From assembly GCA_049317525.1 (NCBI GenBank), contig JBMOIC010000013.1, positions 2,014 to 66,013 of the forward strand: DNA of 64,000 bases, in the 5' to 3' direction. Both the position numbers and the translations under genes were made by a program. The notes below the pieces were generated by a model. The model was not told where the DNA came from and ran no database searches. It saw only the letters and a program-made list of their open reading frames with translations. Origin of the DNA: Bacteroidota bacterium. GTDB lineage: Bacteria; Bacteroidota; Ignavibacteria; Kapaibacteriales; UBA961. This document shows, one piece after another, positions 1 to 41,250 of this stretch (its first letter is position 1; each line of letters starts with the position of its first letter).

Positions 1-830
1 CCCCATAAACGGGTTGGTGGGTCAATAGTAAGCTGTTTTGAATGATCATATGCTCCAATGTTAAATCTAACTATAGAGTCTGAATTCAATGTAAATGCAG
101 AGTATACTTCATTATCTTGATAGGAATAAGGCTTTTGTTGTTCAATTAATCCTAAAGGCGTTTCGATTGCTAAAGTACCATGATTATCTATGTAAAGCTT
201 GTCAGCTCCAGAAATTTTCATTGCTATATTTTCTGGATTTCCCCCAGGATGAACAATAAAATCATATTGTACTTTCTGTTTTTTACCTTCATATACGATA
301 AAATCAATATGTGGATATAGATCTTTAATAATTACTTTTTTACACGATTCTACTTCTGATACTCCATTTGGTATATGAGAATAATAATAATTCGTATAAG
401 ATGATAATGGTTCTATTCCACTAATTATAGATGATTGCGAACTATTCTGAAAAGAAATATCTACTCTATATGATTCTATCACAGATGGAGAATGCATATC
501 ATATTTATGCAGACTTTTTGATTGAAAAGGAATATTTTTTTTAGAATCTCGATGATACACTGCAAATGAAATCCCATTTTTTCTTATATATACAGCACCA
601 CCCGAAACTTGAGCTGTATACAAGATTTCATCATTTCTTTTATGATTCTGATCAATGATTTGTCCATTATTGGCTATAAAAACCAATGCATTATCTACAG
701 TATGAGTAAATCGTGACATTGTATTTTCTTGTGCAAAACAATCTTTATGAAAGGCCAGGATGATACATAATAAACTAGATATGATGAGATAATATCTAGT
801 TTTACAATGTCTATATAAAAATGAATTCAT
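1..830 (-). CDS. Partial SBBP beta-propeller secreted protein, N-terminal part; paralog of 868..4779; runs off the window edge
   Basis: Not in the ORF track. Manual translation from ATG at 830 gives MNSFLYRH...FIANNGQIIDQNHKRNDEILYTAQVSGGAVY...LTIDPPTRLWG, matching FIENKGQILDQ...IDPPTRMWG of the neighbour. Confidence 0.85.
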   Translation of the reverse strand, partial: MNSFLYRHCKTRYYLIISSLLCIILAFHKDCFAQENTMSRFTHTVDNALVFIANNGQIIDQNHKRNDEILYTAQVSGGAVYIRKNGISFAVYHRDSKKNIPFQSKSLHKYDMHSPSVIESYRVDISFQNSSQSSIISGIEPLSSYTNYYYSHIPNGVSEVESCKKVIIKDLYPHIDFIVYEGKKQKVQYDFIVHPGGNPENIAMKISGADKLYIDNHGTLAIETPLGLIEQQKPYSYQDNEVYSAFTLNSDSIVRFNIGAYDHSKQLTIDPPTRLW

Positions 831-867: not shown

Positions 868-3800
868 TTAATGAATTAAGAATTTTTGAGATACTGTTTG
901 AGTATTCGTTCTTAATCGTATAATATACATGCCAGCAGAAATTTTTGAAAGTGGAATCGCTATGTGTTGAATCGATTCATCTGTGGATTGCATTGATTGC
1001 ATCGAATAATGAACAATTCCAAGCATATCAACTAATTCTATTATTGGTGAACTCATAACTGGAAATTCACATAGAATATTCAAAATCTGTGAGTTATCAG
1101 AAGGATTCGGCTGAATACTAAGAATAGAAATTTGTTCACTATTTAACTCATTGATGCCTTGAGGATTAGCTATTGAAATCGTCATAATTGTATCTTTTCT
1201 ACATCCTGCTGCTGAAATTTCAATGACTGTTAATTGCAATGTACCTGGATTTGTACTAGAAATAGAAACGGTAGATTCATCTGTTTTTCCATTAATAATT
1301 CCATTACCGCTAATCAACCAGGAATAAGTTGAACCCTGATTTGATTGCACTATATATTGAATATCTGATTCTCCGGCTTTAATCTCTTTTGGACCAATTA
1401 TTATAGGCATAGGCAATGGTAATTCGATCAACTCTTTTTCTTTAGATAATGCTTGGCAATCACTTGTTTTAACAAGTACACTATATGTACCTGGTATTTT
1501 TGCTGTATATGATTTACCTACAGCATCAATGATATCATTTCCATTTAATTTCCACTGATACCCTGCTGCATCAAGTGAACACATTAATTGTATGCTATCA
1601 CCTTTACAGAATTGATTCTTTCCATTTGCAGCCGAAAACTCTGGATTTATGGAGTTTTTTACAGTTATTGTCATTGATGTATCCTTGATACATCCAGCAA
1701 GTGTTCTTTCGGTTAATCGTAATAATACATTTCCGATACCACCAAATGTGATTTTTGTTATTGCTTCATTTTCACTGCTTAGGCTGGCTTTTCCACTTTC
1801 TATACTCCAGGTGTATAATGAAGTACTTGAAGTAGCAGAGTATTCAACTGGTTTATCAAATCCACAAATTGTGTTTGGACCCTTTATTATCGGTATTGGT
1901 AAAGGATTAATAGTTACTATTAATGAAGTATCTTTCGTACATCCAGTTGTCACATTTGTTTTCTTTAATGTTATAGTATCGGTGCCAATTGCCTTCCATT
2001 CATACCCAGCATTTATTTGTCCTGCAGGACCACTTAATACGCCTTTTCCTTTAGTAGACCACTCATATGTAAAACCAGGTTCATTAGGTGTAGATTTATA
2101 CGTTAATAATTGTCCGATACACACATTTCCATTTCCTTGAATAATTGGGATAGGATTTGCATTAATAGTAATAATGATCATAGTGTCTTTATAGCAACCT
2201 AATGGAGTCTTTGTAACCCTTAATTTTAATGTATCAGTTCCTACAGAATTCCACTTAATTATTACTTCATTATTATTTGCATTTCCTATAATTTTTCCTT
2301 TTGAGGGCTCTGTCCAGGAATAAAGACAATCCTTAATCACTGGTATAGAATATGTCTGATTTGTTTGGCATGTAGAACTTTGACCAATAATAATAGATGT
2401 TGGAACAGCTACTAAATTTAAATCAACGGCATTATCTGGGCTTGCAATAAATGGACTATTACTTAATATTCTAATGCGATAACCGGATCCAGATAAATTT
2501 GAAGGAAATGTACAAACGATTGATCCAGAGGTATTTGCTGTTTTTGTTCCAATAATTGTTGGATTTACAAATGATCCATTTATAGAAGACAATTGGACTG
2601 TAAACACATTATTGGCTGCAAATTGTCCGCTTATTGTATAATTAACAGTTATTGTACTTCCAGCACAAAGCTCTGTTTGTGGAGTAGTACAAGATATTGA
2701 AGGATCTATAGCCATAAATCTAACAAGAAAGGCTTCTTGCAAACCATTACTGGTTGCTTGATATGATCCATTTGTGGTTATATCTGAATTTGAATTAGAA
2801 GTTCCGCATACATATAATTCATTAGATGCATCAAATGCTACTCTATTACAATTATCTGTTTTAATTCCGCCATAATATGAGCCCCAAATCCTGCTTCCAC
2901 TAGCATTAAATTTTGCTATAAAGCCATCATCTTCCCCACTTAAGGACTGTTGAAATCCATCAATAGATGCTATTGCAGATATTGAATTTGTTGTCCCAGT
3001 AATAACAATATTTCCATAAGAATCAGTTGCTAATCCTGTACATAGTTCATTATTTGCGCCTCCATAATACGTTCCCCATGCTCTATTACCATTGGCATCA
3101 AATTTTGCCACATATCCATCAAAAGATCCTTGCAAACCTTGTTGATATGATCCAGATGAAGATATGCTATTAAATGAATTAGTATGCCCTGTTATTAAAA
3201 TACTACCTTGGGCATCTATATGAATTGCAGAGCCATAATCATCTGAAGTTCCTCCATAATAAGTTGCCCAATCACGAGTTCCTGATGCATCAAACTTTGC
3301 TATATAAGAATCTGATCCACCCAAATTATTAGGTTGATACGATCCAGCTGTTGCAATTCCATTAGCTGAAATTGCATCTCCTCTTAATAATATTTTTCCA
3401 CTTATATCTATTGCAATTCCTGTGGATTTATCATCTGAAGTTCCACCATAATATGTACTCCACGTTAATTGTCCAGCAGAAGCATATTTTGCTAAAAATC
3501 CATCATATCCACCACCTAAATTGGTTTGAAATGCGCCTGCTATTGCAATTCCATTAGTAGAATTTGTTAATCCTGCTATAGCAATATTCCCAGAAGCATC
3601 TGTTTTAATTGATAAGCCTTTATCTTCTCCAGAACCACCTAAATAAGTGCCCCAAGTTCTAGTTCCATTATTTGTAAATTTCACTAAGAATGCATCATTA
3701 TTACCTCCTAATACAGTTTGAGGTGCACCAGCTGTTGCTATAGATGCTGCTGAATTCGTTGTTCCACATATGTATACATTTAATGCATTATCAATTGCAA

Positions 3801-4779
3801 TTGCTTGTGCTATTTCGTCTCCAGTACCGCCATAATATGTAGACCAAAGCCTTACACCAGTATTATTAAATTTTGCAATAAAGCCATCTGTATTTGCTGA
3901 TAAGTTAGTTTGATGTGAACCATTTGTTGCAATTCCCCAAGTAGAATTTGTTTGTCCACAAATAAATATATTTCCAGCTTGATCAATTGCAAGATCTGAA
4001 CCAATATCTGCTCCTGCTCCTCCAAAATATGTCCCCCACATTCTAGTTGGTGGATCAATTCTTAATGATTGATGATGATCATAAGAATCTACTTTAAATG
4101 AGACAGTATTATCAGTATTAATGATAAATGATGATGCTATTTCTTTGTCTTGATATGTTCTAGGAGCACCTTGTTCAATTGTTCCAAAAGGTGTTAAAAG
4201 CTGTAAAGAACCAGATTCAGATAGATGTATATCTGAACATCCAGAAAAAGACAATGATATGATATCTGGATTTCCACCCGGTTTTACGATAAAATCATAT
4301 TGAATTGTATTGTGTAGATTAGGATAGAGAATAAAATCTATTTGTGGATAGATGTCTTTGATGATGATCCTTTTGTATTTAGATACATTTGTTATTCCAT
4401 CAGGACAATGTGTAAGGAAATAATTATTCTTATCTGAATACTCGTCAATTCCTTGAAAAATTGGATGTGAGTTTGCCCCTTTAAATTTCATGTCTACCCT
4501 ATAGACATTTTTATTGGCTTGCTTTGATGTATCATAATTAGCAAAACTAATTTCATTTGCTTTTACATATACTGCCCCACCGGGTATTTGTGCCATGAAT
4601 ATAACTTCATCATTTACATTCCCCTTTTGATCTAATATTTGGCCTTTATTCTCGATAAATTCGATAGAATTTCTATTACTTAACATTGAAGATATGTCTG
4701 TGTTTTTTGCATAAACATTGACACTATTTACAATAAAAAAAAGCAATAACGATGCGATAGATAAGCGTTTCATGGCCAT
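868..4779 (-). CDS. SBBP-repeat beta-propeller protein with Ig/PKD-like repeats and T9SS type-A C-terminal sorting domain
   Basis: Signal peptide; seven WxTY(Y/F/L)GG repeats; Ig-like stalk; C-terminus IQPNPS...AGMYIIRL...SQKFLIH. Confidence 0.85.
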   Translation of the reverse strand: MAMKRLSIASLLLFFIVNSVNVYAKNTDISSMLSNRNSIEFIENKGQILDQKGNVNDEVIFMAQIPGGAVYVKANEISFANYDTSKQANKNVYRVDMKFKGANSHPIFQGIDEYSDKNNYFLTHCPDGITNVSKYKRIIIKDIYPQIDFILYPNLHNTIQYDFIVKPGGNPDIISLSFSGCSDIHLSESGSLQLLTPFGTIEQGAPRTYQDKEIASSFIINTDNTVSFKVDSYDHHQSLRIDPPTRMWGTYFGGAGADIGSDLAIDQAGNIFICGQTNSTWGIATNGSHQTNLSANTDGFIAKFNNTGVRLWSTYYGGTGDEIAQAIAIDNALNVYICGTTNSAASIATAGAPQTVLGGNNDAFLVKFTNNGTRTWGTYLGGSGEDKGLSIKTDASGNIAIAGLTNSTNGIAIAGAFQTNLGGGYDGFLAKYASAGQLTWSTYYGGTSDDKSTGIAIDISGKILLRGDAISANGIATAGSYQPNNLGGSDSYIAKFDASGTRDWATYYGGTSDDYGSAIHIDAQGSILITGHTNSFNSISSSGSYQQGLQGSFDGYVAKFDANGNRAWGTYYGGANNELCTGLATDSYGNIVITGTTNSISAIASIDGFQQSLSGEDDGFIAKFNASGSRIWGSYYGGIKTDNCNRVAFDASNELYVCGTSNSNSDITTNGSYQATSNGLQEAFLVRFMAIDPSISCTTPQTELCAGSTITVNYTISGQFAANNVFTVQLSSINGSFVNPTIIGTKTANTSGSIVCTFPSNLSGSGYRIRILSNSPFIASPDNAVDLNLVAVPTSIIIGQSSTCQTNQTYSIPVIKDCLYSWTEPSKGKIIGNANNNEVIIKWNSVGTDTLKLRVTKTPLGCYKDTMIIITINANPIPIIQGNGNVCIGQLLTYKSTPNEPGFTYEWSTKGKGVLSGPAGQINAGYEWKAIGTDTITLKKTNVTTGCTKDTSLIVTINPLPIPIIKGPNTICGFDKPVEYSATSSTSLYTWSIESGKASLSSENEAITKITFGGIGNVLLRLTERTLAGCIKDTSMTITVKNSINPEFSAANGKNQFCKGDSIQLMCSLDAAGYQWKLNGNDIIDAVGKSYTAKIPGTYSVLVKTSDCQALSKEKELIELPLPMPIIIGPKEIKAGESDIQYIVQSNQGSTYSWLISGNGIINGKTDESTVSISSTNPGTLQLTVIEISAAGCRKDTIMTISIANPQGINELNSEQISILSIQPNPSDNSQILNILCEFPVMSSPIIELVDMLGIVHYSMQSMQSTDESIQHIAIPLSKISAGMYIIRLRTNTQTVSQKFLIH
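2869..4040 (-). repeat. Seven intragenic ~192-bp (64-aa) beta-propeller repeats
   Basis: TYYGG-coding motif recurs near 2869, 3061, 3253, 3445, 3637, 3829 and 4021. Confidence 0.8.
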
Positions 4780-4861
4780 TTCCGGGTTTATTAATATATA
4801 CCCTGCAATTTAATTTCTTTTTGCATAGAAATGGCCATTAAGCTTATATAAATACTTGTAT

Positions 4862-7651
4862 TTATTTACATTTTACACAACAATCTGGAAATGCATATAA
4901 ATCTGGACGCATATTGATTAAACGAACAGTTACATCTACTCTTCGAACACCGTCTAAGTCATAATAACTGTTTTCACCTCTGATATATTTTTGTATTTCA
5001 GGTTGAATCGATGTATCAACATATTGTCCTTCTGCCATGATGATAATTCTAGCTTGTTTTAGCTTTCTTTCATAATCTGATGGATTTGAGAAATCCGTAG
5101 GGCTAATAATTAATCCTTTTCTTTGCAATTCACTAAATAATGAGTCCTTTTTTAATTGTTGCATTACGGCTTCAAAACCATAATACGCTCTTAATTTAGA
5201 AAGTGTATCATTATCTTGTCCAACTAATGATGCACCACTAGCTATCTGGATAGCAGTTGGTTTTTTAAATGTATAATTCACTGTATCAAATGCACATGAA
5301 ATATATTGAACATTATTAGGAGAGATAAATTTTCCAACGGTAACTGGTCTAATATCAGAATAAGCAGTCATGGTTATCAATACTTTTGCAGTATCATTTT
5401 TATCATAGACCTTCCAGAAATTCTTTAGAACTTTAGAAGTAGAATCGGCCATATTCTTAATATTTCTATCAATAATAGCAGCCTTGGAACGATAATCTGC
5501 TCTACGCGTATTCATTCTTTCTGTCGATTCATTTCCATTACGATTTCCCCAATATTTATTCTTCCAATTAAGTTCTATCCAAGATGCATTTTCTAAGTCA
5601 CCATCTTTAAGTCTATCGATATGTTCACTATATCCTTTTACTGTATTAACTTCCCAAAATGCTGTCTGAAAATATGGGACATTCTTTTGTGATCCAAAAA
5701 CTAGTAAGGTATCTAATTCTAGACAACATGGTGATTTATCATATTGTGGATATAAACGAATTGTATCGTGGACAATAATTGGCATGCAAGAATCAGTTGC
5801 TTTTACCATTACATATGGAAGTCTTAATTCTGCAAATCTGGTTTTGGATGAACCTATATGTCTTATTGAACTTGCTATTCCTACAGTATCATATGAATAG
5901 ACAGTATCTTTATACGCAATAGATCTAGTCATTCTGGCTTGCCTTAATGGTGGCATAGAATCAATATAGATTGTTGTGTCTCTACCAACCCGGATTCTCA
6001 TTTCTGGTGTAATATCAATTCTCTCATTTATTTTTTTTCTTAATTGAGGAATATTAAAATTATCCTTTGGTAAGGTATCATATACCCTGGCTGTTCTAGC
6101 TGCTTTTACGGATTTATCCTGAACCATTGTATCATATTGTTCTTTGCGTGATTTAGACAATATTTGTTCAATCGTTCTGGTAATATCATATCCATTATAA
6201 TTTGTTAAGATTGGTTCTAAGTTCTTGCATGGCTTTGTATTAAATGATGAATATCCATTCGATTTAATTGCTATTCCTTGTTGATAATTTTTCATTGAAT
6301 CAGAAGGAACACTCATTGTAAATGTATTACCTTTAATCTCTTTCATTTTACCATCAATATACACTTCTAATACTCCATTTTTAACCGAAGTATCATTTCC
6401 ATTATCATTGATTAATGTTACAGTATAGGCTACAGGGCATGGTTTTGGGGGTTGTTCGCATGGATAATTTGGATCGCATGGTTGGCATGGCAAACATGGT
6501 TCAGGTTTTTTGATCCCACAAAAAAAAGTGGCCTTAGTTTTATAAAGATCTAAACCGCCATATCCATATTTTTTAGCTGTATCTGGTGAAGTTAAAGATA
6601 ATCGATTTGATGAAAAGAACATTTCTCTTTCTACAGGTTGTACATCTGTAGTATCCATATGTGGATATTTTATATATGGAAACATCTCCATTGCAAGTGT
6701 ATTTACTGAGTCTTCCGTATTTCCTAAAATAAATGTACTATCTATCATCATTGACAGATTACCATTATTAGATAAACTATCCCAAGAAACTTGTAATGTA
6801 GAATAATAGATTTCATAGTTTCCTGATCGATTTGATGAAAAGATCAAATGCGGATTTCCATCTATACAGTATAAAAATGGAGAATATTCATTAGCCGGAG
6901 AATTTATGAAACCATCTCCTTGAAATAATCTCAGATTTATTGGTTTACTCCACTCTGTTCCTTTGCCAATTTTTCTGAAAGAAATAAATAAATCTGCATT
7001 TCCTTTTCTTTCAATCCCATTTACAGTGTACATTGCATTTTCATATGGGGCAGAGAAGCCTTCTGGTGACATTCTATCTGAGCTAAAAACTAATATTTCC
7101 ATTCCTGATGCTTCATGAATTCCTATCGTTGGATGTGCATCCCAAGCTGTAGAATTTAATTCTGATAAATTTCTAATTTTTTTATCAAAATTTTCAAATA
7201 AATCACTTCCACCTTGTACTTTACTTCCTGATGCTCCTAAAAAGCTAGCAACAGTAGAATCAATCGCAGCAGATGATGCAAATACTAATGAAAAAGCACC
7301 CGGAGTTACTGTACCCGAATGCCGAACAAATTCTTCTGGCATATCATGAAGTATTACTCTTTCTGTTTTGACTTGTCCCATACTATCTATCATCGATAAT
7401 GGAACTTGATATACTCTTTCTCTTTTATTTGTATTAGAGGTTATCAATAATGTATCATATTTTTTGATTTCTTTTTGATCATGCGGTGTTTCTGTTCCCG
7501 CTGCAAAATCATCATCTTTAGTATTAACTGAAGTACCTAAAATAGAAGGTGTTTTCTTAATTACTACTTTCGGTGAATTATTATCTGTTGCTTGTATCAT
7601 TGCATATAATGCAAAGCAAAACAATATGCTTGTATAAATATATTTTTTCAT
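4862..7651 (-). CDS. Secreted PD40 (WD40-like) repeat protein with divergent OmpA-like C-terminal domain (PorE-like), Cys-rich
   Basis: PD40-like motifs LNSTAWDAHP, INSPANEYSPF, FSSNR, GYGGLDLY; OmpA-like AYSD...NDTLSKLRA...RRVDV; many CC/CxxC motifs. Confidence 0.6.
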   Translation of the reverse strand: MKKYIYTSILFCFALYAMIQATDNNSPKVVIKKTPSILGTSVNTKDDDFAAGTETPHDQKEIKKYDTLLITSNTNKRERVYQVPLSMIDSMGQVKTERVILHDMPEEFVRHSGTVTPGAFSLVFASSAAIDSTVASFLGASGSKVQGGSDLFENFDKKIRNLSELNSTAWDAHPTIGIHEASGMEILVFSSDRMSPEGFSAPYENAMYTVNGIERKGNADLFISFRKIGKGTEWSKPINLRLFQGDGFINSPANEYSPFLYCIDGNPHLIFSSNRSGNYEIYYSTLQVSWDSLSNNGNLSMMIDSTFILGNTEDSVNTLAMEMFPYIKYPHMDTTDVQPVEREMFFSSNRLSLTSPDTAKKYGYGGLDLYKTKATFFCGIKKPEPCLPCQPCDPNYPCEQPPKPCPVAYTVTLINDNGNDTSVKNGVLEVYIDGKMKEIKGNTFTMSVPSDSMKNYQQGIAIKSNGYSSFNTKPCKNLEPILTNYNGYDITRTIEQILSKSRKEQYDTMVQDKSVKAARTARVYDTLPKDNFNIPQLRKKINERIDITPEMRIRVGRDTTIYIDSMPPLRQARMTRSIAYKDTVYSYDTVGIASSIRHIGSSKTRFAELRLPYVMVKATDSCMPIIVHDTIRLYPQYDKSPCCLELDTLLVFGSQKNVPYFQTAFWEVNTVKGYSEHIDRLKDGDLENASWIELNWKNKYWGNRNGNESTERMNTRRADYRSKAAIIDRNIKNMADSTSKVLKNFWKVYDKNDTAKVLITMTAYSDIRPVTVGKFISPNNVQYISCAFDTVNYTFKKPTAIQIASGASLVGQDNDTLSKLRAYYGFEAVMQQLKKDSLFSELQRKGLIISPTDFSNPSDYERKLKQARIIIMAEGQYVDTSIQPEIQKYIRGENSYYDLDGVRRVDVTVRLINMRPDLYAFPDCCVKCK

Positions 7652-7660
7652 AGTTTTTTC

Positions 7661-8548
7661 TTAATTCTCTTTACATTCTTCACATTTATAAGCTTCTGCA
7701 AACTTAATTGTCACCCTTTTTACTTTTGGTGCCAATACTCCTTCTTGAATATTTGATATCAAGACAAAGAAGTTTGTTCCATTTTGTGCTTTATAATAAA
7801 ACACATCACCTATTTTAAATCGTACACTATAATTAGATAAATCATTGGCTATAACGCTTCTAAATGGAGGCAATACATTCAATGTTTTAATATTTAATGG
7901 CCAAGAACTTGGGAATGTAAATGTTTTAGGATTCCCTGTCGGATTACTGGCCACAATAGAATAATTATTTCCAGTTGAATCTTGCTTATAGGTTAATGCA
8001 GAGGCATCATAAAAAGCACAAAATGCCAAACTAGAACCAGGATTTGATTGTTTACCAACATTTTGTACATATGTTGCAAAAATATTAGCATCATCTGTTT
8101 TTAAAGAAGTATCTATTGGAAAAACATCTCCTTTAAAACGTAGTCTGGTTTCTGGTTCTAATGAAATTGGTGGTAATGTGACACTTTCTACAAGAATATC
8201 GCCATCCATTAATGAATTTGGAGGTGAATTAAATGTATATGTCGTTGTATATCCTGTCAATGGATAATCCTTTTCTGCAAATGTCCAAGGACCTGCAGAG
8301 AACTTTTGATTATTTGGTAAATCCCCCGAAGAGTAAGAAGAGTAAGGGAATCTAAATGTAGCAATATTAAATTCAGGAACGGGTGTTCTATTATTTAAAG
8401 TATCAATTGCAGAATTAAATACTGCTATTGTTGCTTCTCTCACAATAGGCTTTTCATTTGGTACTATTGGTGTTGGAACAAAGCAATCTCCACAACCACT
8501 AAAAATTAGTACACACATACTTAACAATAATAATTGATATGTTTTCAT
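7661..8548 (-). CDS. Hypothetical lipoprotein
   Basis: Lipobox FSGC; ends in CEECKEN; TAATG overlap with the upstream stop. Confidence 0.7.
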   Translation of the reverse strand: MKTYQLLLLSMCVLIFSGCGDCFVPTPIVPNEKPIVREATIAVFNSAIDTLNNRTPVPEFNIATFRFPYSSYSSGDLPNNQKFSAGPWTFAEKDYPLTGYTTTYTFNSPPNSLMDGDILVESVTLPPISLEPETRLRFKGDVFPIDTSLKTDDANIFATYVQNVGKQSNPGSSLAFCAFYDASALTYKQDSTGNNYSIVASNPTGNPKTFTFPSSWPLNIKTLNVLPPFRSVIANDLSNYSVRFKIGDVFYYKAQNGTNFFVLISNIQEGVLAPKVKRVTIKFAEAYKCEECKEN

Positions 8549-9846
8549 TAATAAATTACTCCTAAGCGCAATTGAAAAGTTCCTATTCTTCTTGTTCCTG
8601 GGATATCAGCAAAACCTAAAAGACTAAATGAATCTCCTACAGCAATACTACGATAACCCAAATCTAATTCTATATCTATAAATGGTAAAATTGGAATATC
8701 CAATCCTATGCCCATTCCATAACTTAATGGTAAAGACCAATCAAGATCAATTTCTCCATTTGCTTGAGCTTCCTTAATCTTGGCTACACAGGTATTACAT
8801 GTTGCCCCAGCAGACATCTGCCAAGCATTTCTTGTTTGGGCATCAAATGACATCCCAAATTCACCATATGTATATGGTTTAATACAACCAAAAATAGCCT
8901 TAAACCAATTATCTGACGATTTCATTTCGTTTAATTCTTGTTCTGCTTTGGATGATCCTTCGCTTTCACCATTATTAACATTTATATAAAAAAAGCTTTG
9001 ATTAGCTTTCTTTTCTATAACATTTTTAGGCGGATTAAAATAATATCGTCCGGTTAATAAAACCATCGGACGAGGTATAGTAATCAGCGTATCTAAATTT
9101 GTTAATAATGAAGTTATTGCACCTGCATTTACTGTTTGAATTCCAGATGAATATGTAAATCCAAGCATCCATCTTTGATCTTTTCCTAAACGCGCACCTG
9201 CAATTACATCACCAATAACATGTATTTTTCCTTGATCTACCAATGCATTACCATCATTAAACATAGAAGCATTGCCCAATACTCCTAAAAATACTGGAGA
9301 ATATTCCCTATCGAAACAATGCAAATTCAAGCCAGCATCTATACCCAAACCTAAACGAAAATTTAAACCGAAACTTAAATCCAATGGATCGCAATTACAT
9401 GGTTTTACTGTCTGTAAAGGTATTTTTCGAATCAATGGAATTTGTTTAGTAACATGGAAACTCTCTACTAAATTAAATCCACCTAAAGAATCTGTTTGAA
9501 TCCCAGGAAATAAATCGGGTATTGTCTCCATATGTTTTAATGGAATAAATATACCTTTGGAAGATAATGTGGTGTCTATTTTATCCTGAAATGCAAATAC
9601 AGTATCAATAGAATTTTGTGCGGAATCTCTCATTATCTGTATATGAGATACATATCCTCTTAATGTTCTTCCATCACGATTAGCTGCATTTTGGGCTTTT
9701 TGAAAATATTGTGCTGAATATTCTGGTTTGATACGAACAGCATCTTCATATGTAGTTTGCTCATTATCCTTTGGGACAGATGAACAACCAACAAAAACTA
9801 AACAACAGAATGCCAATAATACTTGGATTTTACTTGATGTTTTCAT
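8548..9846 (-). CDS. Hypothetical lipoprotein with probable C-terminal outer-membrane beta-barrel
   Basis: Lipobox FVGC; alternating hydrophobic strands; terminal FQLRLGVIY resembles a beta-signal. Confidence 0.6.
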   Translation of the reverse strand: MKTSSKIQVLLAFCCLVFVGCSSVPKDNEQTTYEDAVRIKPEYSAQYFQKAQNAANRDGRTLRGYVSHIQIMRDSAQNSIDTVFAFQDKIDTTLSSKGIFIPLKHMETIPDLFPGIQTDSLGGFNLVESFHVTKQIPLIRKIPLQTVKPCNCDPLDLSFGLNFRLGLGIDAGLNLHCFDREYSPVFLGVLGNASMFNDGNALVDQGKIHVIGDVIAGARLGKDQRWMLGFTYSSGIQTVNAGAITSLLTNLDTLITIPRPMVLLTGRYYFNPPKNVIEKKANQSFFYINVNNGESEGSSKAEQELNEMKSSDNWFKAIFGCIKPYTYGEFGMSFDAQTRNAWQMSAGATCNTCVAKIKEAQANGEIDLDWSLPLSYGMGIGLDIPILPFIDIELDLGYRSIAVGDSFSLLGFADIPGTRRIGTFQLRLGVIY

Positions 9847-10422
9847 TTATTTTCCTCCTAGTGGCATGCTGAAATGTACCATACCTGCAAGGCTGGACAA
9901 ATGCGGACGATCCTTATCGCGAAGCATATTATTAGTTGTATATCGTGCAGAAAGAGTTATAAACCAATCACAACATGGATTTTCATAATTGAATAAATAT
10001 CCTGCCTCTATCGTTCCTGGCATTCCTACTTTTCCCTCTTTATCCTTACCTATTATTACAGATAGCCCAGTACCAATTCCAAGATATAATGGGACTGTTG
10101 GTGCTCCCCAAGGAAACCAACGAACATTTGCTTGAACATTGAGTACATGCGGTAAAGAATAGATTCTCGGGCTAGTATATTCTAAACTATCAATTGGTTG
10201 ATAATTTCCATAATTAACTGTGAATACTGGCCATAACTTGCAATATCGATGCAAGCCATATTGTAATTCTCCATGTAATCCTAAATTGGACTGGTCTACA
10301 AATTGTGTTTGTGGTGATGCAGCCCCTAATCCAAGGCCAAGAAAAGATTGTCCGTATGCACTTTGTGCACCTCCAATCATACAACACACCATCATTCCTA
10401 GTAAAAATAATCTCATGCGCAT
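9847..10422 (-). CDS. Small outer-membrane beta-barrel-like protein
   Basis: Signal peptide, amphipathic strands (LYLGIGTGLS, IEAGYLF), 191 aa; stop abuts the next ATG. Confidence 0.6.
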   Translation of the reverse strand: MRMRLFLLGMMVCCMIGGAQSAYGQSFLGLGLGAASPQTQFVDQSNLGLHGELQYGLHRYCKLWPVFTVNYGNYQPIDSLEYTSPRIYSLPHVLNVQANVRWFPWGAPTVPLYLGIGTGLSVIIGKDKEGKVGMPGTIEAGYLFNYENPCCDWFITLSARYTTNNMLRDKDRPHLSSLAGMVHFSMPLGGK

Positions 10423-10898
10423 TCTATAAATGTATAAATAAATAATTATGTCTGAATTCTATGTATAAAGTTTACAAAACTCTTAGTCTTTATTATATCT
10501 TCACGTCAAAAACATCTTAGCCTAGTTTTATGTTTTTTTATGTGATATTGATAATACTTAGTTACTTCATGAAGTATCTATTGAATACAATCCATTTTTA
10601 TGAAAAAAAACCCTAAATCGCTTGTCCTACAATAAATAACTAAATTAACTTCTAACCAATCTGATTGAAGTAAAAACCAGAACCTAATATGAATATTTAT
10701 TATTCGACCGATATAATTTGCTACATGACATTAATTGACTTTTCATTCATACCTTTTGAGAAATATATCATATCTCAAACTTCTCTGCCCCCATACTTGG
10801 CATCACATTAAGACACATACACTTTTCATTTACCGCTATTCTTTACAATTCTTTATCATAATGAGTCTTCAGCCAAAGTCTTTAAGAATTATTAATTT

Positions 10899-11897
10899 TT
10901 ACTTAGAAATTTCTTTCAATGGATAAAGATTTGATTCGGAAACTGTATTCTTATTAAGCAATGGTGTAATTCCAGATTTCATCATAAATTTCGTTAGATA
11001 TAAGTCAAGTAATTCATTGTTTATATTTTTCAATGTAAATTGATTGTTATTTTTCCAATAATTATACTCTGTTTCTGTATTTGTAGCAGCATACACTCTA
11101 ACTTCAGTATTTGATAATGAACGGTAATAACCAATCTTATAATTTCCAGATGGCACAAGAGATGCTGTAACTGTTTTTTCATAATTAGTACCAGGATTGA
11201 TTTTCAGTTTTTTTACTGTCTTTACACCTTGATGATGAACTATTAGATAAAAATATGATTCTGGAATTCGAATAATATATTGTTGATGCTGATTATCAGT
11301 AAAATCAAAGTTCTCATATTTTGAAATAACTTCACCCAATAAGCTACCATCAGAGAATGTGGCATTTGTCTGCCAATAAAGACTTGGTTTGGGCGCTACT
11401 TTACCTTCTATATATGTAGATTTTATAGTAGTTGAATCATTTGGATCGATTGTTACTATTTCACCAAACATTCTTACTTCTGCTTTTGTAAACGTTGTAT
11501 TATATACAGTTAGAGCATAGTCATTTATAATATTGATAAGAAATGGTGTTGTAGTACCAATATTCCCTGCGGCATCATATGCCAAAGCCCTTAAAGTATA
11601 AGAGCCATTTTTTTGCAAATATGTATCCCAAGTAAATTCCCAAGGAGCAGATGTTATCGTACCGATCAGTGTATTGTCAAGATAGATCTCTACTTTCTTT
11701 ACACCTACATTATCATTGCATTGTAATTCAAATGTCTCATTTTCATAAAGATCTGTCCCATAGATACCTCCCGGATAGATAAAATCTATAGTAGGTTTAA
11801 CATTATCACTATTCAAAGCAGAATTTGAGTTATCTGAACATGAACTGTTCACTAAAAGGATAGAACTAAGAATTAAAAACAGGAAAAATGATTTCAT
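10899..11897 (-). CDS. Ig-like (Big) domain lipoprotein
   Basis: Lipobox NSSC; DNVGVKKVEIY...WDT...NGSYTLRALAYDAAGN is a typical bacterial Ig-like pattern. Confidence 0.75.
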   Translation of the reverse strand: MKSFFLFLILSSILLVNSSCSDNSNSALNSDNVKPTIDFIYPGGIYGTDLYENETFELQCNDNVGVKKVEIYLDNTLIGTITSAPWEFTWDTYLQKNGSYTLRALAYDAAGNIGTTTPFLINIINDYALTVYNTTFTKAEVRMFGEIVTIDPNDSTTIKSTYIEGKVAPKPSLYWQTNATFSDGSLLGEVISKYENFDFTDNQHQQYIIRIPESYFYLIVHHQGVKTVKKLKINPGTNYEKTVTASLVPSGNYKIGYYRSLSNTEVRVYAATNTETEYNYWKNNNQFTLKNINNELLDLYLTKFMMKSGITPLLNKNTVSESNLYPLKEISK

Positions 11898-12127
11898 AAA
11901 TACACCAAAAAAAAGAATGCGAAATATAGTTATGTCAAAAGTTAGTTAAAAGATAATTTCATTCTCTAGATATTAACATTCATTTGCATGATTTAACAAA
12001 AAAGTTGTTGCTTCGGAATGAATCATTAGATAACCCTCTTTGAATTACTATATTTTTTAGATTAAATATTTAGGAGTACTTCGATTTTTACAATCTAATT
12101 ACGTACTAAACACCCTATGAATTACAC

Positions 12128-12535
12128 TTATAATCCCATTGCAGCTTTTTCGAGTTTAGATTGTATTTCTAAGTATTTTTTTTCGATAGATGGATTTGAA
12201 TTACATGTATAAGAGTGTTTGGCCCAAATGCTTGCTTGTTTAAGCATAAAATTATATTCCAGGAAGACCGTTTTGTCTTTAGGATTTGCTTTGTATTTTT
12301 CTATTATCTCTATGTATTTATCAACCCATAATTGATAATCTAAAAGATATTGATCACAATTTTTTGAAGATGCAGGCCTATATACTATTGGATTTACTGC
12401 TGTTTGAAGCAAAGTAGATGCACTGATTGATGATTTGTCTACCGAAGACGATGGTTTATTAATTGTTTCTTTATTACAACCCAAAATAATACAAGAAACT
12501 AACAATAAACTTATACTTTGTACCCAAGCTTTCAT
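12128..12535 (-). CDS. Small helical lipoprotein (DUF6591-like)
   Basis: Lipobox ILGC; DQYLLDYQLWVDKYIEIIEKYK motif; ATG at 12535 preferred to the track start at 12550. Confidence 0.6.
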   Translation of the reverse strand: MKAWVQSISLLLVSCIILGCNKETINKPSSSVDKSSISASTLLQTAVNPIVYRPASSKNCDQYLLDYQLWVDKYIEIIEKYKANPKDKTVFLEYNFMLKQASIWAKHSYTCNSNPSIEKKYLEIQSKLEKAAMGL

Positions 12536-12697
12536 GCTCCCTCTACCCAATTAAAGTAATTTTCAACTACACACTAATTTTTTCTTGGAAAAACCACTTA
12601 ATCTTTTTTCAGTACATATTTAATACTTAAAAACTTTCAAAACAAGAAAGATTTAATTTTCTATGCAAAATGAGTAGTTACTAAGTAGTGCCACTTA

Positions 12698-39609: not shown

Positions 39610-41250
39610 TTAATTCCTCATCATGATAAATTCTGTTCTTCTATTTTGTTTTCTTTGTTCTTCATTTTCATTTGAATTTAATGGCTCAGATTCTCCCATT
39701 CCTTTAGGAATTAATCTATTTTTCATGATGCCTTTTTGTACGATAGCTGATGCAACTGATTGTGCCCTTGCCAAAGAGAGTTCCAGATTATTTTTTTCTG
39801 TTCCGATATCATCTGTATGACCTCTAATCTCAATTATTAATTCTGGATTATTATTCATAGCTACTACTATTTCATCAATTATTTGTTCATTTCCAGCAGA
39901 CATAATTGATGTGCCACTTTCGAACTGAATATTTGCTATGTGTATAGAACCTTTATTTTCATAAAACTGAAATAACGATTTATCATAATATCCATGTGTA
40001 TATCCAACTATGTCTTTCCTTAGTTGAACAAATAGTCCAATTTTATGAATATCAGCAGATTTTGGTGGTGTATACGAAATACGATAATGATTTTTTATAC
40101 TTTTTACTATATCTGCTAATACATATGGAAACTCTTTGATTGTGTAGATTCTATACATTTTACCTCCGGTAGCTGAAGATAATTTTTTAAGAGGCATTTC
40201 ATCTGTCATGCCATAAGCAATAGAAAATATTGGAATATTATGTGCTCTACTTAGTCTGATAATGCTATCTTCATGAATCTTTGAAGAATTATCACCTCCA
40301 TCGCTAAATAAAACGATAATGCGTTGATGCATTGAAACTTTCTTTAATTCCTCTATTCCTGCAGCTGTACCATCATATAAGGCTGTACCACTTCCATAAC
40401 TTTTAGTAGAATCATCTTTAAATGAAGAATTTCCATTAAAGCCTATAGATAAACCCGAAGAATAATTTCTTAAGCCATCAATTTTAAATAGCGAAGTATA
40501 TGTTTGATAATTATTCATTAATGGTACTTCAGTAAATATCTTAGATGTGAATTTAATAACAGATATATAATCTTCATCATATAACATATCCATTGTATTT
40601 CGTACAGCTTCTTGTAATTTTATTGCACGTGAATTTCCCATAGAAGGAGAATGGTCTAAAACAAAAGATAATGCTAATGGATTTCTTTGATCTTCTCTAA
40701 TTTCCTTCACTGAAAATGATCCTACTCTGCTTTTTTTATATGAAATCGAGCTAGAATCTGTAAGTGATTTCCAAATTACACTTGGGTTTTTGGGTGTAAC
40801 AATAATACCTTTATCACCAGCTAATCCTTTTATGAAATGTCCAGAAGAATCCGTTACTTTTACCAACATTATTATTGAGTCTGGATAATGAGAATCATCA
40901 ATCCTTATTATTGATGTTTGAATTGTCTGATAAGATATACTTTGATTATTCGAAAAGATTTCTTGTACAGTTGGTGATATCTGATTTTGCTGAATGGTAT
41001 CGTTAAGTGTCTGAGAATGATAGCCTAATGAAGAAAACAAAGAGTCATTCAATAAAGCTGATTGGGATGAAAATGGATATTGATAAAGCAATGAATCAAA
41101 CATAATTTCTGATGTCTGATATACAGGACGATATCCCTTGGGTGGCTGCAATTCCATGATTTGTTGTACCATCATATGTGGACATCCAATAAGAAAGAAT
41201 GCCAATAGACAAGGAATACACTTCAGGAATATACGATGCATTACAAGCAT
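39610..41250 (-). CDS. VWA-domain plus OmpA-like domain lipoprotein
   Basis: Lipobox LIGC; MIDAS DHSPS, TALYD, LFSDG; GHTD...NLELSLARA...NRRTEF. Start at 41250 or 41241. Confidence 0.85.
   Translation of the reverse strand: MLVMHRIFLKCIPCLLAFFLIGCPHMMVQQIMELQPPKGYRPVYQTSEIMFDSLLYQYPFSSQSALLNDSLFSSLGYHSQTLNDTIQQNQISPTVQEIFSNNQSISYQTIQTSIIRIDDSHYPDSIIMLVKVTDSSGHFIKGLAGDKGIIVTPKNPSVIWKSLTDSSSISYKKSRVGSFSVKEIREDQRNPLALSFVLDHSPSMGNSRAIKLQEAVRNTMDMLYDEDYISVIKFTSKIFTEVPLMNNYQTYTSLFKIDGLRNYSSGLSIGFNGNSSFKDDSTKSYGSGTALYDGTAAGIEELKKVSMHQRIIVLFSDGGDNSSKIHEDSIIRLSRAHNIPIFSIAYGMTDEMPLKKLSSATGGKMYRIYTIKEFPYVLADIVKSIKNHYRISYTPPKSADIHKIGLFVQLRKDIVGYTHGYYDKSLFQFYENKGSIHIANIQFESGTSIMSAGNEQIIDEIVVAMNNNPELIIEIRGHTDDIGTEKNNLELSLARAQSVASAIVQKGIMKNRLIPKGMGESEPLNSNENEEQRKQNRRTEFIMMRN

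Follow-up and report, generated by a model that had tools for sequence, protein, structure and literature searches.

Four consecutive genes, here called A, B, C and D, form a genuine co-inherited unit of four unnamed protein families in the stretch of DNA that we analysed (the window, which is the whole stretch of 64,000 nucleotides (nt) from contig JBMOIC010000013.1 of a Bacteroidota bacterium with a 2.57 Mb genome). All four lie on the minus strand, and coordinates of open reading frames (ORFs) are positions within the window (Table 1). To the reading that their products may act as an accessory anchor between the outer membrane (OM) and peptidoglycan, built around protein D, a relative of PorE, a type IX secretion system (T9SS) component, and employing novel partners, we give about an even chance. 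The stop codon of A abuts the start of B, B shares 1 nt with C, and a gap of 9 nt separates C from D. An earlier note, prepared from this DNA alone, had described four co-oriented genes joined in exactly this manner, and the ORFs agree with that description. No terminator-like site was found within 4500-11200.

Co-inheritance was assessed in 151 genomes of the same order, with D counted at E ≤ 1e-30. D was present in 68 of these genomes, B in 69, A in 70 and C in 61. Each of the 68 D-bearing genomes has A and B, and each of the 61 C-bearing genomes has A, B and D. A always adjoins B in its 70 genomes; the surplus genomes counted for A and B are contig-end cases or a fragment. At the level of genera, A, B and D occur in 26 out of 49, with tallies that are identical except in genus g5 (22 genomes, with D in 9, B in 10 and A in 11), and C occurs in 23 out of 49. 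Within the organism's own genus, the module was found in 11 of 12 other genomes. Of the eight D-homologue loci that were fetched, six keep the A-B-C-D order, and the junctions there abut or overlap. Another 24 genomes, judged by coordinates, have this order too. Consecutive NCBI locus tags agree with it. Moreover, contigs from RNA libraries of three lake or freshwater studies contain all four genes at 95-100% identity and bridge the A/B, B/C and C/D junctions. The conserved gene order that the earlier note had asked about is thus there, and its proposal of a conserved four-gene envelope module of unnamed families is upheld by co-inheritance and order.

Some variants of the cluster deserve mention. 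One genome (G454) carries two complete A-B-C-D clusters, on contigs C59 and C29. A 1211-aa (amino acid) form of D, longer by about 300 aa and located away from A-B-C, is present in G269 (L035, 7778-11413) and in G297 (L036, 8791-12426). In a more distant genome, G049, the first 4 nt of A are shared with a gene for a 1031-aa VWA protein (L033, 13804-16899), which may belong to the same transcript as the cluster.

None of the four proteins had a match in Pfam or NCBIfam at E ≤ 0.1, and none passed a family threshold. When Pfam was searched at E ≤ 10, D gave a single PD40 repeat (E 0.16, 12.4 bits vs a gathering cut-off of 20.9). Relatives were found as 37 protein clusters for D, 32 for B and 25 for C, and as 22 representatives for A (E ≤ 1e-3 among 1.84 billion representatives), all of them unnamed. 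No precomputed Pfam domain is recorded on relatives of D, B or C, and the organisms named for the relatives are Kapabacteria/Kapaibacteriota, Ignavibacteria, 'Chlorobi bacterium' and Bacteroidota. Sequence profiles compared with the PDB gave best E-values of 0.59 for D, 0.14 for B and 2.5 for C, with no match for A, and the ESM Atlas returned only unnamed or generic barrel clusters for B and C (scores for C below 0.9). Among the titles and opening lines of abstracts returned by full-text literature searches, none described an A-B-C-D cluster; subscription journals lie outside that coverage. As judged from sequence comparison, A-D define four families that are unnamed in current libraries.

Protein D is the member for which relations to described proteins are clearest in its N-terminal half. 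The AlphaFold2 (AF2) model of D (pLDDT 73, pTM 0.43) contains a propeller which, over model residues 23-399, is matched by VIA to GH43/GH62/GH32-type propellers with Z 17.7-13.8; the best match has Z 17.7, a root-mean-square deviation (rmsd) of 3.7 and 258 aligned residues, and 49 further matches are of the five-bladed type. A D-family profile was also searched over 401 genomes of the phylum. Matches beyond the D family covered the propeller only, in proteins of about 300-1090 aa (E 1e-15 to 1e-6). When 19 such propeller-sharing proteins were scanned, PD40 was found in 19, OmpA in 16, CarboxypepD_reg in eight and TPR in four (PorE architecture). An hhalign comparison of the D family with 16 PD40+OmpA proteins reached a probability of 99.95% (E 2.7e-38) over residues 1-587 of D. 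By this profile-profile measure, the N-terminal half of D is homologous to PD40+CRD+OmpA proteins.

The alignment with PD40+CRD+OmpA proteins extends beyond the propeller, and the AF2 model places a beta-sandwich there, with strands between residues 407 and 468 (pLDDT 85-94). Taken alone, the sandwich gave an hhalign probability of 0.3% and no Pfam CRD match. No TPR was found in D by Pfam at E ≤ 10, and the propeller starts at about residue 28. After the sandwich come long hairpins whose strands, assigned by DSSP to residues 481-510, 515-527, 553-565, 570-593 and 625-638, reach up to 30 residues (pLDDT 60-90). As to the N-terminus, a lipobox is clear in 15 of 19 aligned orthologues, ambiguous in one and missing from three. 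The linker with five extra cysteines occurs, among the compared genomes, only in the genome studied here (G000), in the same copy of D that has no lipobox.

Three OmpA_C motifs are retained towards the C-terminus of D, in its last domain, namely AYSD766, N814-DTLSKL-R821-A and RRV903-905, and they are invariant or nearly so. The pattern N..LS..RA is present in 19 of 19 members of the D family, and [AF][YF]SD.R is located about 51 residues upstream of it. Among the 2686 frames of G000 that are 100 aa or longer, 18 occurrences of this pattern were counted, and 15 coincide with matches to PF00691; the pattern followed by RR[VI] was seen six times, of which five are at PF00691 matches and the sixth is D itself. 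The candidate Asp, Asn and Arg of D would match Asp576, Asn584 and Arg591 of PorE, which hold the diaminopimelate of the stem peptide according to PMC7192894, and the spacing between Asn and Arg is 7 residues, equal to that in PorE. It is probable, on the basis of these motifs, that the C-terminal domain is a much-altered OmpA_C derivative. The earlier note had labelled D as PD40 + OmpA-like and as similar to PorE. The similarity to PorE holds in the succession of propeller, beta-sandwich and OmpA_C-like tail; the PD40 part of the label is supported by profile-profile and fold comparison, and the OmpA-like part by motifs only.

Of the remaining three proteins, B starts with a lipobox (...VFVGC21, read from the sequence) whose Cys21 is kept in 20 of 20 aligned sequences. 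Its AF2 model (pLDDT 72.6, pTM 0.52) has eight long strands between residues 185 and 431, and the C-terminus, ...LGVIY, ends in an aromatic residue. Residues 179-432 were compared by VIA-align, and the closest structures were 9nh2_A, an 8-stranded porin of the Legionella Dot/Icm machine (Z 14.1, rmsd 3.2, 163 aligned residues), NspA (1p4t_A, Z 13.7) and OmpW (2f1t_A, Z 12.6); Foldseek likewise found OmpA, NspA and OmpW at E 2.9e-6 to 2.9e-5. As modelled, B is a lipoprotein with an 8-stranded barrel of the OmpA/OmpW/NspA type. In the A family, 6 of 20 aligned members match PF13505 (OMP_b-brl; best E 2.3e-9), and the copy from the window has no match. C has a lipobox (...IFSGC19, again read from the sequence) followed by an invariant C22. 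Neither A nor B matched PF11751 (PorP_SprF) at E ≤ 10, and C and D gave no such match either. We also considered that A and B could be duplicates of one barrel, an idea abandoned since hhalign of A vs B gave a probability of 1.3% and no sign of duplication. What the earlier note had said of these proteins is supported for B (a lipoprotein with a barrel), for C (a lipoprotein) and for the dissimilarity of the partners to PorP, and the term small barrel for A is supported at the family level.

How could such proteins work together? PorE is an OM lipoprotein composed of TPR, a five-bladed propeller, CRD and OmpA_C (PMC7192894). According to PMC12773672, it probably touches the barrel PorP through its propeller and cannot function without Asp576 and Asn584. 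By analogy, the C-terminal domain of D may bind the stem peptide of peptidoglycan via Asp766, Asn814 and Arg821, and its propeller might dock onto partners in the OM. These partners would be the barrels A and B, both presumed to be 8-stranded, together with lipoprotein C, in place of the PorP/SprF barrel.

There are several observations which speak against such an anchor. The reading presumes contacts among the four proteins, for which a complex prediction with D 28-475, B 22-180 and C 20-295, in which C was scored, gave 0.00, favouring neither side. As for wall binding, PF00691 did not match D even at E ≤ 10, D is absent among the 32 PF00691 matches of its own genome, and a profile of the last 290 residues of D, built from eight genomes, found only D itself in G000 at E ≤ 10. 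Comparison by hhalign of the C-terminal and middle parts of D with the OmpA_C domains of the genome and with the PD40+OmpA proteins was not significant (probabilities of 1.9% and 0.1%); both of these low-confidence alignments place NDTLSKLRA of D on N..LS..RA of OmpA_C. The candidate Asp is located 48 residues before Asn, vs 8 in PorE, with a predicted hairpin insert of about 40 residues between them. The window copy of D has a signal peptide but no lipobox, and its two closest relatives have no lipobox either. The RNA-library contigs may include DNA and fall short of proving that the genes share one transcript. Finally, C is missing, with the order A-B-D, in 7 of 68 genomes (G401, G408, G415, G425, G429, G434 and G475), and D is unlinked from A-B-C in three (G269, G297 and G528), which indicates that none of the four strictly requires all the others, and 83 of 151 genomes have no D, and thus the role of the module is dispensable.

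The second group of data concerns cysteines. The earlier note had quoted paired cysteines in all four proteins, and every quoted motif is present in the translations: CC150-151 in A, CNC150-152 and CNTC350-353 in B, CGDC19-22 and CEEC289-292 in C, and CC642-643, CC924-925 and C928 in D. Cysteine content of A-D is 1.7-2.6%, vs 1.09% in those ORFs of the genome that reach 180 aa or more (1697 in number). Past residue 25, a C-x(0-2)-C pair is found in 16.4% of these ORFs, and four such genes in a row would be expected at about 7e-4 if independence is assumed, so that the observed run exceeds chance. In A, C61 is invariant, and CC150-151 is present in most members, with a single shifted Cys in a distant group. 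In B, C21, C150, C152, C177 and C321 are invariant, and C350 and C353 are kept in at least 90% of sequences. In C, C22 is invariant, the C-terminal CxxC (289-292) and C177 are found only in closer orthologues, and a distant group has another Cys pair at 34 and 158. In D, C262, C378, C475, C643, C924 and C925 are invariant in 19 of 19 aligned sequences, with G045 departing at two of these positions, and CC924-925 is present in all eight genome copies compared, the 1211-aa forms included. Conservation of cysteines, which the earlier note had proposed as a check, is therefore evident as invariant columns in all four families, but the co-variation between proteins that would have accompanied it is not clear: pairs are gained and lost between lineages inside single proteins. 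Such a pattern fits structural disulfides better than a shared site, and the conserved cysteines are most likely structural disulfides of the periplasm and of an outer loop, as far as alignments can tell.

In one variant of the anchor, which would work independently of T9SS, disulfides between subunits or a metal site common to them would staple a PorE-type protein to the barrels and the lipoprotein. The linkage sites would be the C-terminal CC of D, the C-terminal CxxC of C, the CC of A and the CxC of B. We regard this as possible, yet on the unlikely side. If it were true, the PorE architecture would be a general, reusable wall anchor, not confined to secretion systems.

Another explanation is that the four genes form a T9SS accessory, that is, a PorE/PorP-type unit which anchors particular cargo, e.g. 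the downstream SBBP propeller proteins, or their apparatus. On one hand, D has the PorE architecture, the genome has SprA, and the cluster lies 82 nt upstream of a gene with DUF7948, SBBP repeats and Por_Secre_tail. The latter gene (E) does carry the T9SS C-terminal domain (CTD) that the earlier note had ascribed to at least one of the downstream genes; the tail of F lies off the contig end. In F. johnsoniae, six porP-like genes adjoin porE-like genes, and a PorP-PorE unit anchors a type B CTD protein, as reported in PMC9143113. Besides, in G297 the lone 1211-aa D gene follows an 864-aa Por_Secre_tail gene, and a PD40+CRD+OmpA gene is found further upstream. On the other hand, Por_Secre_tail is missing from all 31 proteins that flank the cluster in six other loci of conserved order, so that the T9SS-cargo neighbourhood of the window is not a conserved feature; flanking genes there are unrelated and housekeeping (argininosuccinate synthase, LepA, signal peptidases, UvrB, DprA, transhydrogenase). 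SprA is present in 148 of 151 genomes of the order, vs 68 for the module. The barrels A and B, taken as 8-stranded, do not match PorP_SprF, C is a lipoprotein that has no CTD, and the genome possesses four ordinary PD40+OmpA genes, which are located among unrelated genes. A genome-wide search of G000 with PF11751 found no match either, but its positive control was silent in every genome, and this search is uninformative. The distribution of SprA together with the missing cargo flanks points to an autonomous accessory module and not a part of the core T9SS; the T9SS association suggested in the earlier note is not supported, and we consider a T9SS accessory unlikely.

It should be added that in G000 a 344-aa gene (L053, 841-1875) and a 200-aa gene (L052, 889-1491) each lie directly upstream of an ordinary PD40+OmpA gene. 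Neither has a Pfam match, and they could be partners of those PD40+OmpA proteins.

Similarly improbable, in our opinion, is the possibility that A-D are co-transcribed envelope proteins serving one process and forming no stable complex, for instance co-regulated structural proteins of the OM. It would agree with the ability of C to be absent and of D to sit elsewhere in the genome, and with the abundance of OmpA-type and small-barrel paralogues in Bacteroidota, exemplified by the PF00691 matches counted above. It is less easily reconciled with the joint presence or absence of A, B and D across the 151 genomes, with overlapping or abutting junctions that are conserved in other genomes, or with the second complete four-gene copy in G454.

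One could also imagine that the chemistry of CC, CxC and CxxC, and not anchoring, is the function itself, and that A-D are a redox or metal-handling envelope complex. Close Cys pairs in all four proteins, the invariant C-terminal CC of D and CxC of B, the near-invariant CxxC of B and a Cys content about twice the genome mean would be understandable in this scenario. However, no family or fold match to a redox or metal protein appeared in the searches made, the translated sequences of A-D show no CxxCH haem motif, cysteines come and go as pairs inside single proteins in the manner of structural disulfides, and the recognisable domains (barrels, propeller, OmpA_C-like motifs) are structural, which makes this idea quite improbable. 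Less credible still is a Tol-Pal-like role of D as a fused TolB-Pal analogue in OM constriction at division. D does join a PD40 propeller to an OmpA_C-like tail, and Foldseek does find TolB chains at E 9.4e-7 to 4e-5, but with a TM of 0.33 on the target. TolB has a six-bladed propeller and an N-terminal alpha/beta domain and is encoded with tolQRA-pal, whereas the best folds for D are five-bladed propellers (Z about 17), no TolQ, TolR or TolA-like gene stands beside the cluster in the scanned loci, and the patchy distribution (68 of 151) is at odds with a division function.

Table 1. Features of the A-D locus and its surroundings (window positions, or protein residues where so stated)
Feature	Location	Strand	Description
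Gene A	9847-10422	-	191 aa; signal peptide, small OM beta-barrel family
Gene B	8548-9846	-	432 aa; lipoprotein with predicted 8-stranded OM barrel
B, N-terminal small beta domain	residues about 33-146	-	AF2 model
B, low-confidence linker	C150, C152, C177	-	AF2 model
B, predicted 8-stranded OM barrel	residues 179-432	-	long periplasmic turn; helical outer loop bearing C350, C353
Gene C	7661-8548	-	295 aa; lipoprotein
Gene D	4862-7651	-	929 aa; signal peptide, propeller and OmpA_C-like tail
D, five-bladed PD40-type propeller	6494-7570	-	residues 28-386
D, Pro/Cys-rich linker CLPCQPC...C...C	6437-6517	-	residues 379-405; five extra Cys
D, beta-sandwich at PorE CRD position	6242-6439	-	residues 405-470
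D, long polar beta-hairpins, possible spacer arm	5732-6211	-	residues 481-640
D, alpha/beta domain, putative peptidoglycan-binding	4907-5704	-	residues about 650-915
D, vicinal Cys924-Cys925, extreme C-terminus	4877-4882	-	19/19 sequences
Gene E	868-4779	-	1303 aa; DUF7948 + SBBP repeats + Por_Secre_tail; 82 nt downstream of D
Gene F	3-830	-	DUF7948; E paralogue in tandem; off contig end after 947 aa, C-terminus unseen
Upstream intergenic region	10423-10898	-	476 nt; expected promoter place; strain-variable

Upstream of A, beyond the intergenic region, two lipoprotein-like genes are located at 10899-12550 on the minus strand. The first encodes a lipoprotein of 332 aa with a Big_7 domain, and the second a protein of 140 aa that matches DUF6591 only weakly, at E 9.6e-4, without passing the cut-off. 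As to the intergenic region itself, a scan for sigma-70 promoters gave 26 sites vs 40 expected and was uninformative. In one study, RNA-library contigs stop at 10428 and at 10447, and cover begins again at 10585. The uncovered stretches, 10448-10584 in that study and parts of gene E, were not used as evidence. A related strain, represented by one RNA-library contig, has 13 other letters in place of 10635-10858 (224 nt). The possibility that this strain-variable piece is a repeat was ruled out, as it is unique in the genome. Among the PF00691 matches of G000, one is in the window, near 39640-39924 on the minus strand, and ORFs of about 680-730 aa with two OmpA matches each are found on contigs C39, C24, C2, C10, C1, C15 and C3.

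The OM-to-peptidoglycan anchor, if it is the correct reading, would gain its significance from the manner in which the module is inherited. A PorE-like protein is tied by inheritance to three unnamed families, and relatives that have T9SS gain or lack the module as one unit. It thus offers a clean system for asking which partners such a propeller docks onto and whether this architecture has a general role as a wall anchor. Freshwater genomes of the Kapabacteria type contain the four families, which are also represented in lake RNA libraries.

Comparison with known systems shows what is shared and what is peculiar to the module. The closest counterpart of D is PorE (PG1058), which works with PorP and PG1035 in the T9SS of Porphyromonas gingivalis. 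Both proteins proceed from a five-bladed propeller through a beta-sandwich, at the CRD position, to an OmpA_C-like tail, and both are encoded beside OM barrel partners. PorE is a lipoprotein, as are most D orthologues, the window copy with its missing lipobox being different. Unlike PorE, D has no TPR and contains an inserted beta-hairpin arm of 160 residues, and its putative OmpA_C domain has diverged beyond recognition by Pfam or hhalign, with the insert of about 40 residues lying inside the binding motif. Its presumed partners are two 8-stranded barrels and a lipoprotein, vs PorP/SprF and a type B CTD protein for PorE, and the module has no conserved T9SS neighbourhood and is confined to 68 of 151 genomes. 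The generic PD40 + CarboxypepD_reg + OmpA proteins of Bacteroidota are homologous to the N-terminal half of D. They exceed the Pfam thresholds for PD40 and OmpA, measure 430-930 aa and are found here among unrelated genes, whereas D falls short of both thresholds and is inherited along with A, B and C. The same logic of linking the OM to the wall is seen in OmpA, in which an 8-stranded barrel is joined to an OmpA_C-type domain, and in TolB-Pal, where a PD40 propeller meets an OmpA_C lipoprotein. Unlike in OmpA, the barrel and the putative wall-binding domain of the module are on separate polypeptides, and unlike in TolB-Pal, the propeller has five blades and genes for Tol inner-membrane partners are missing from the neighbourhood.

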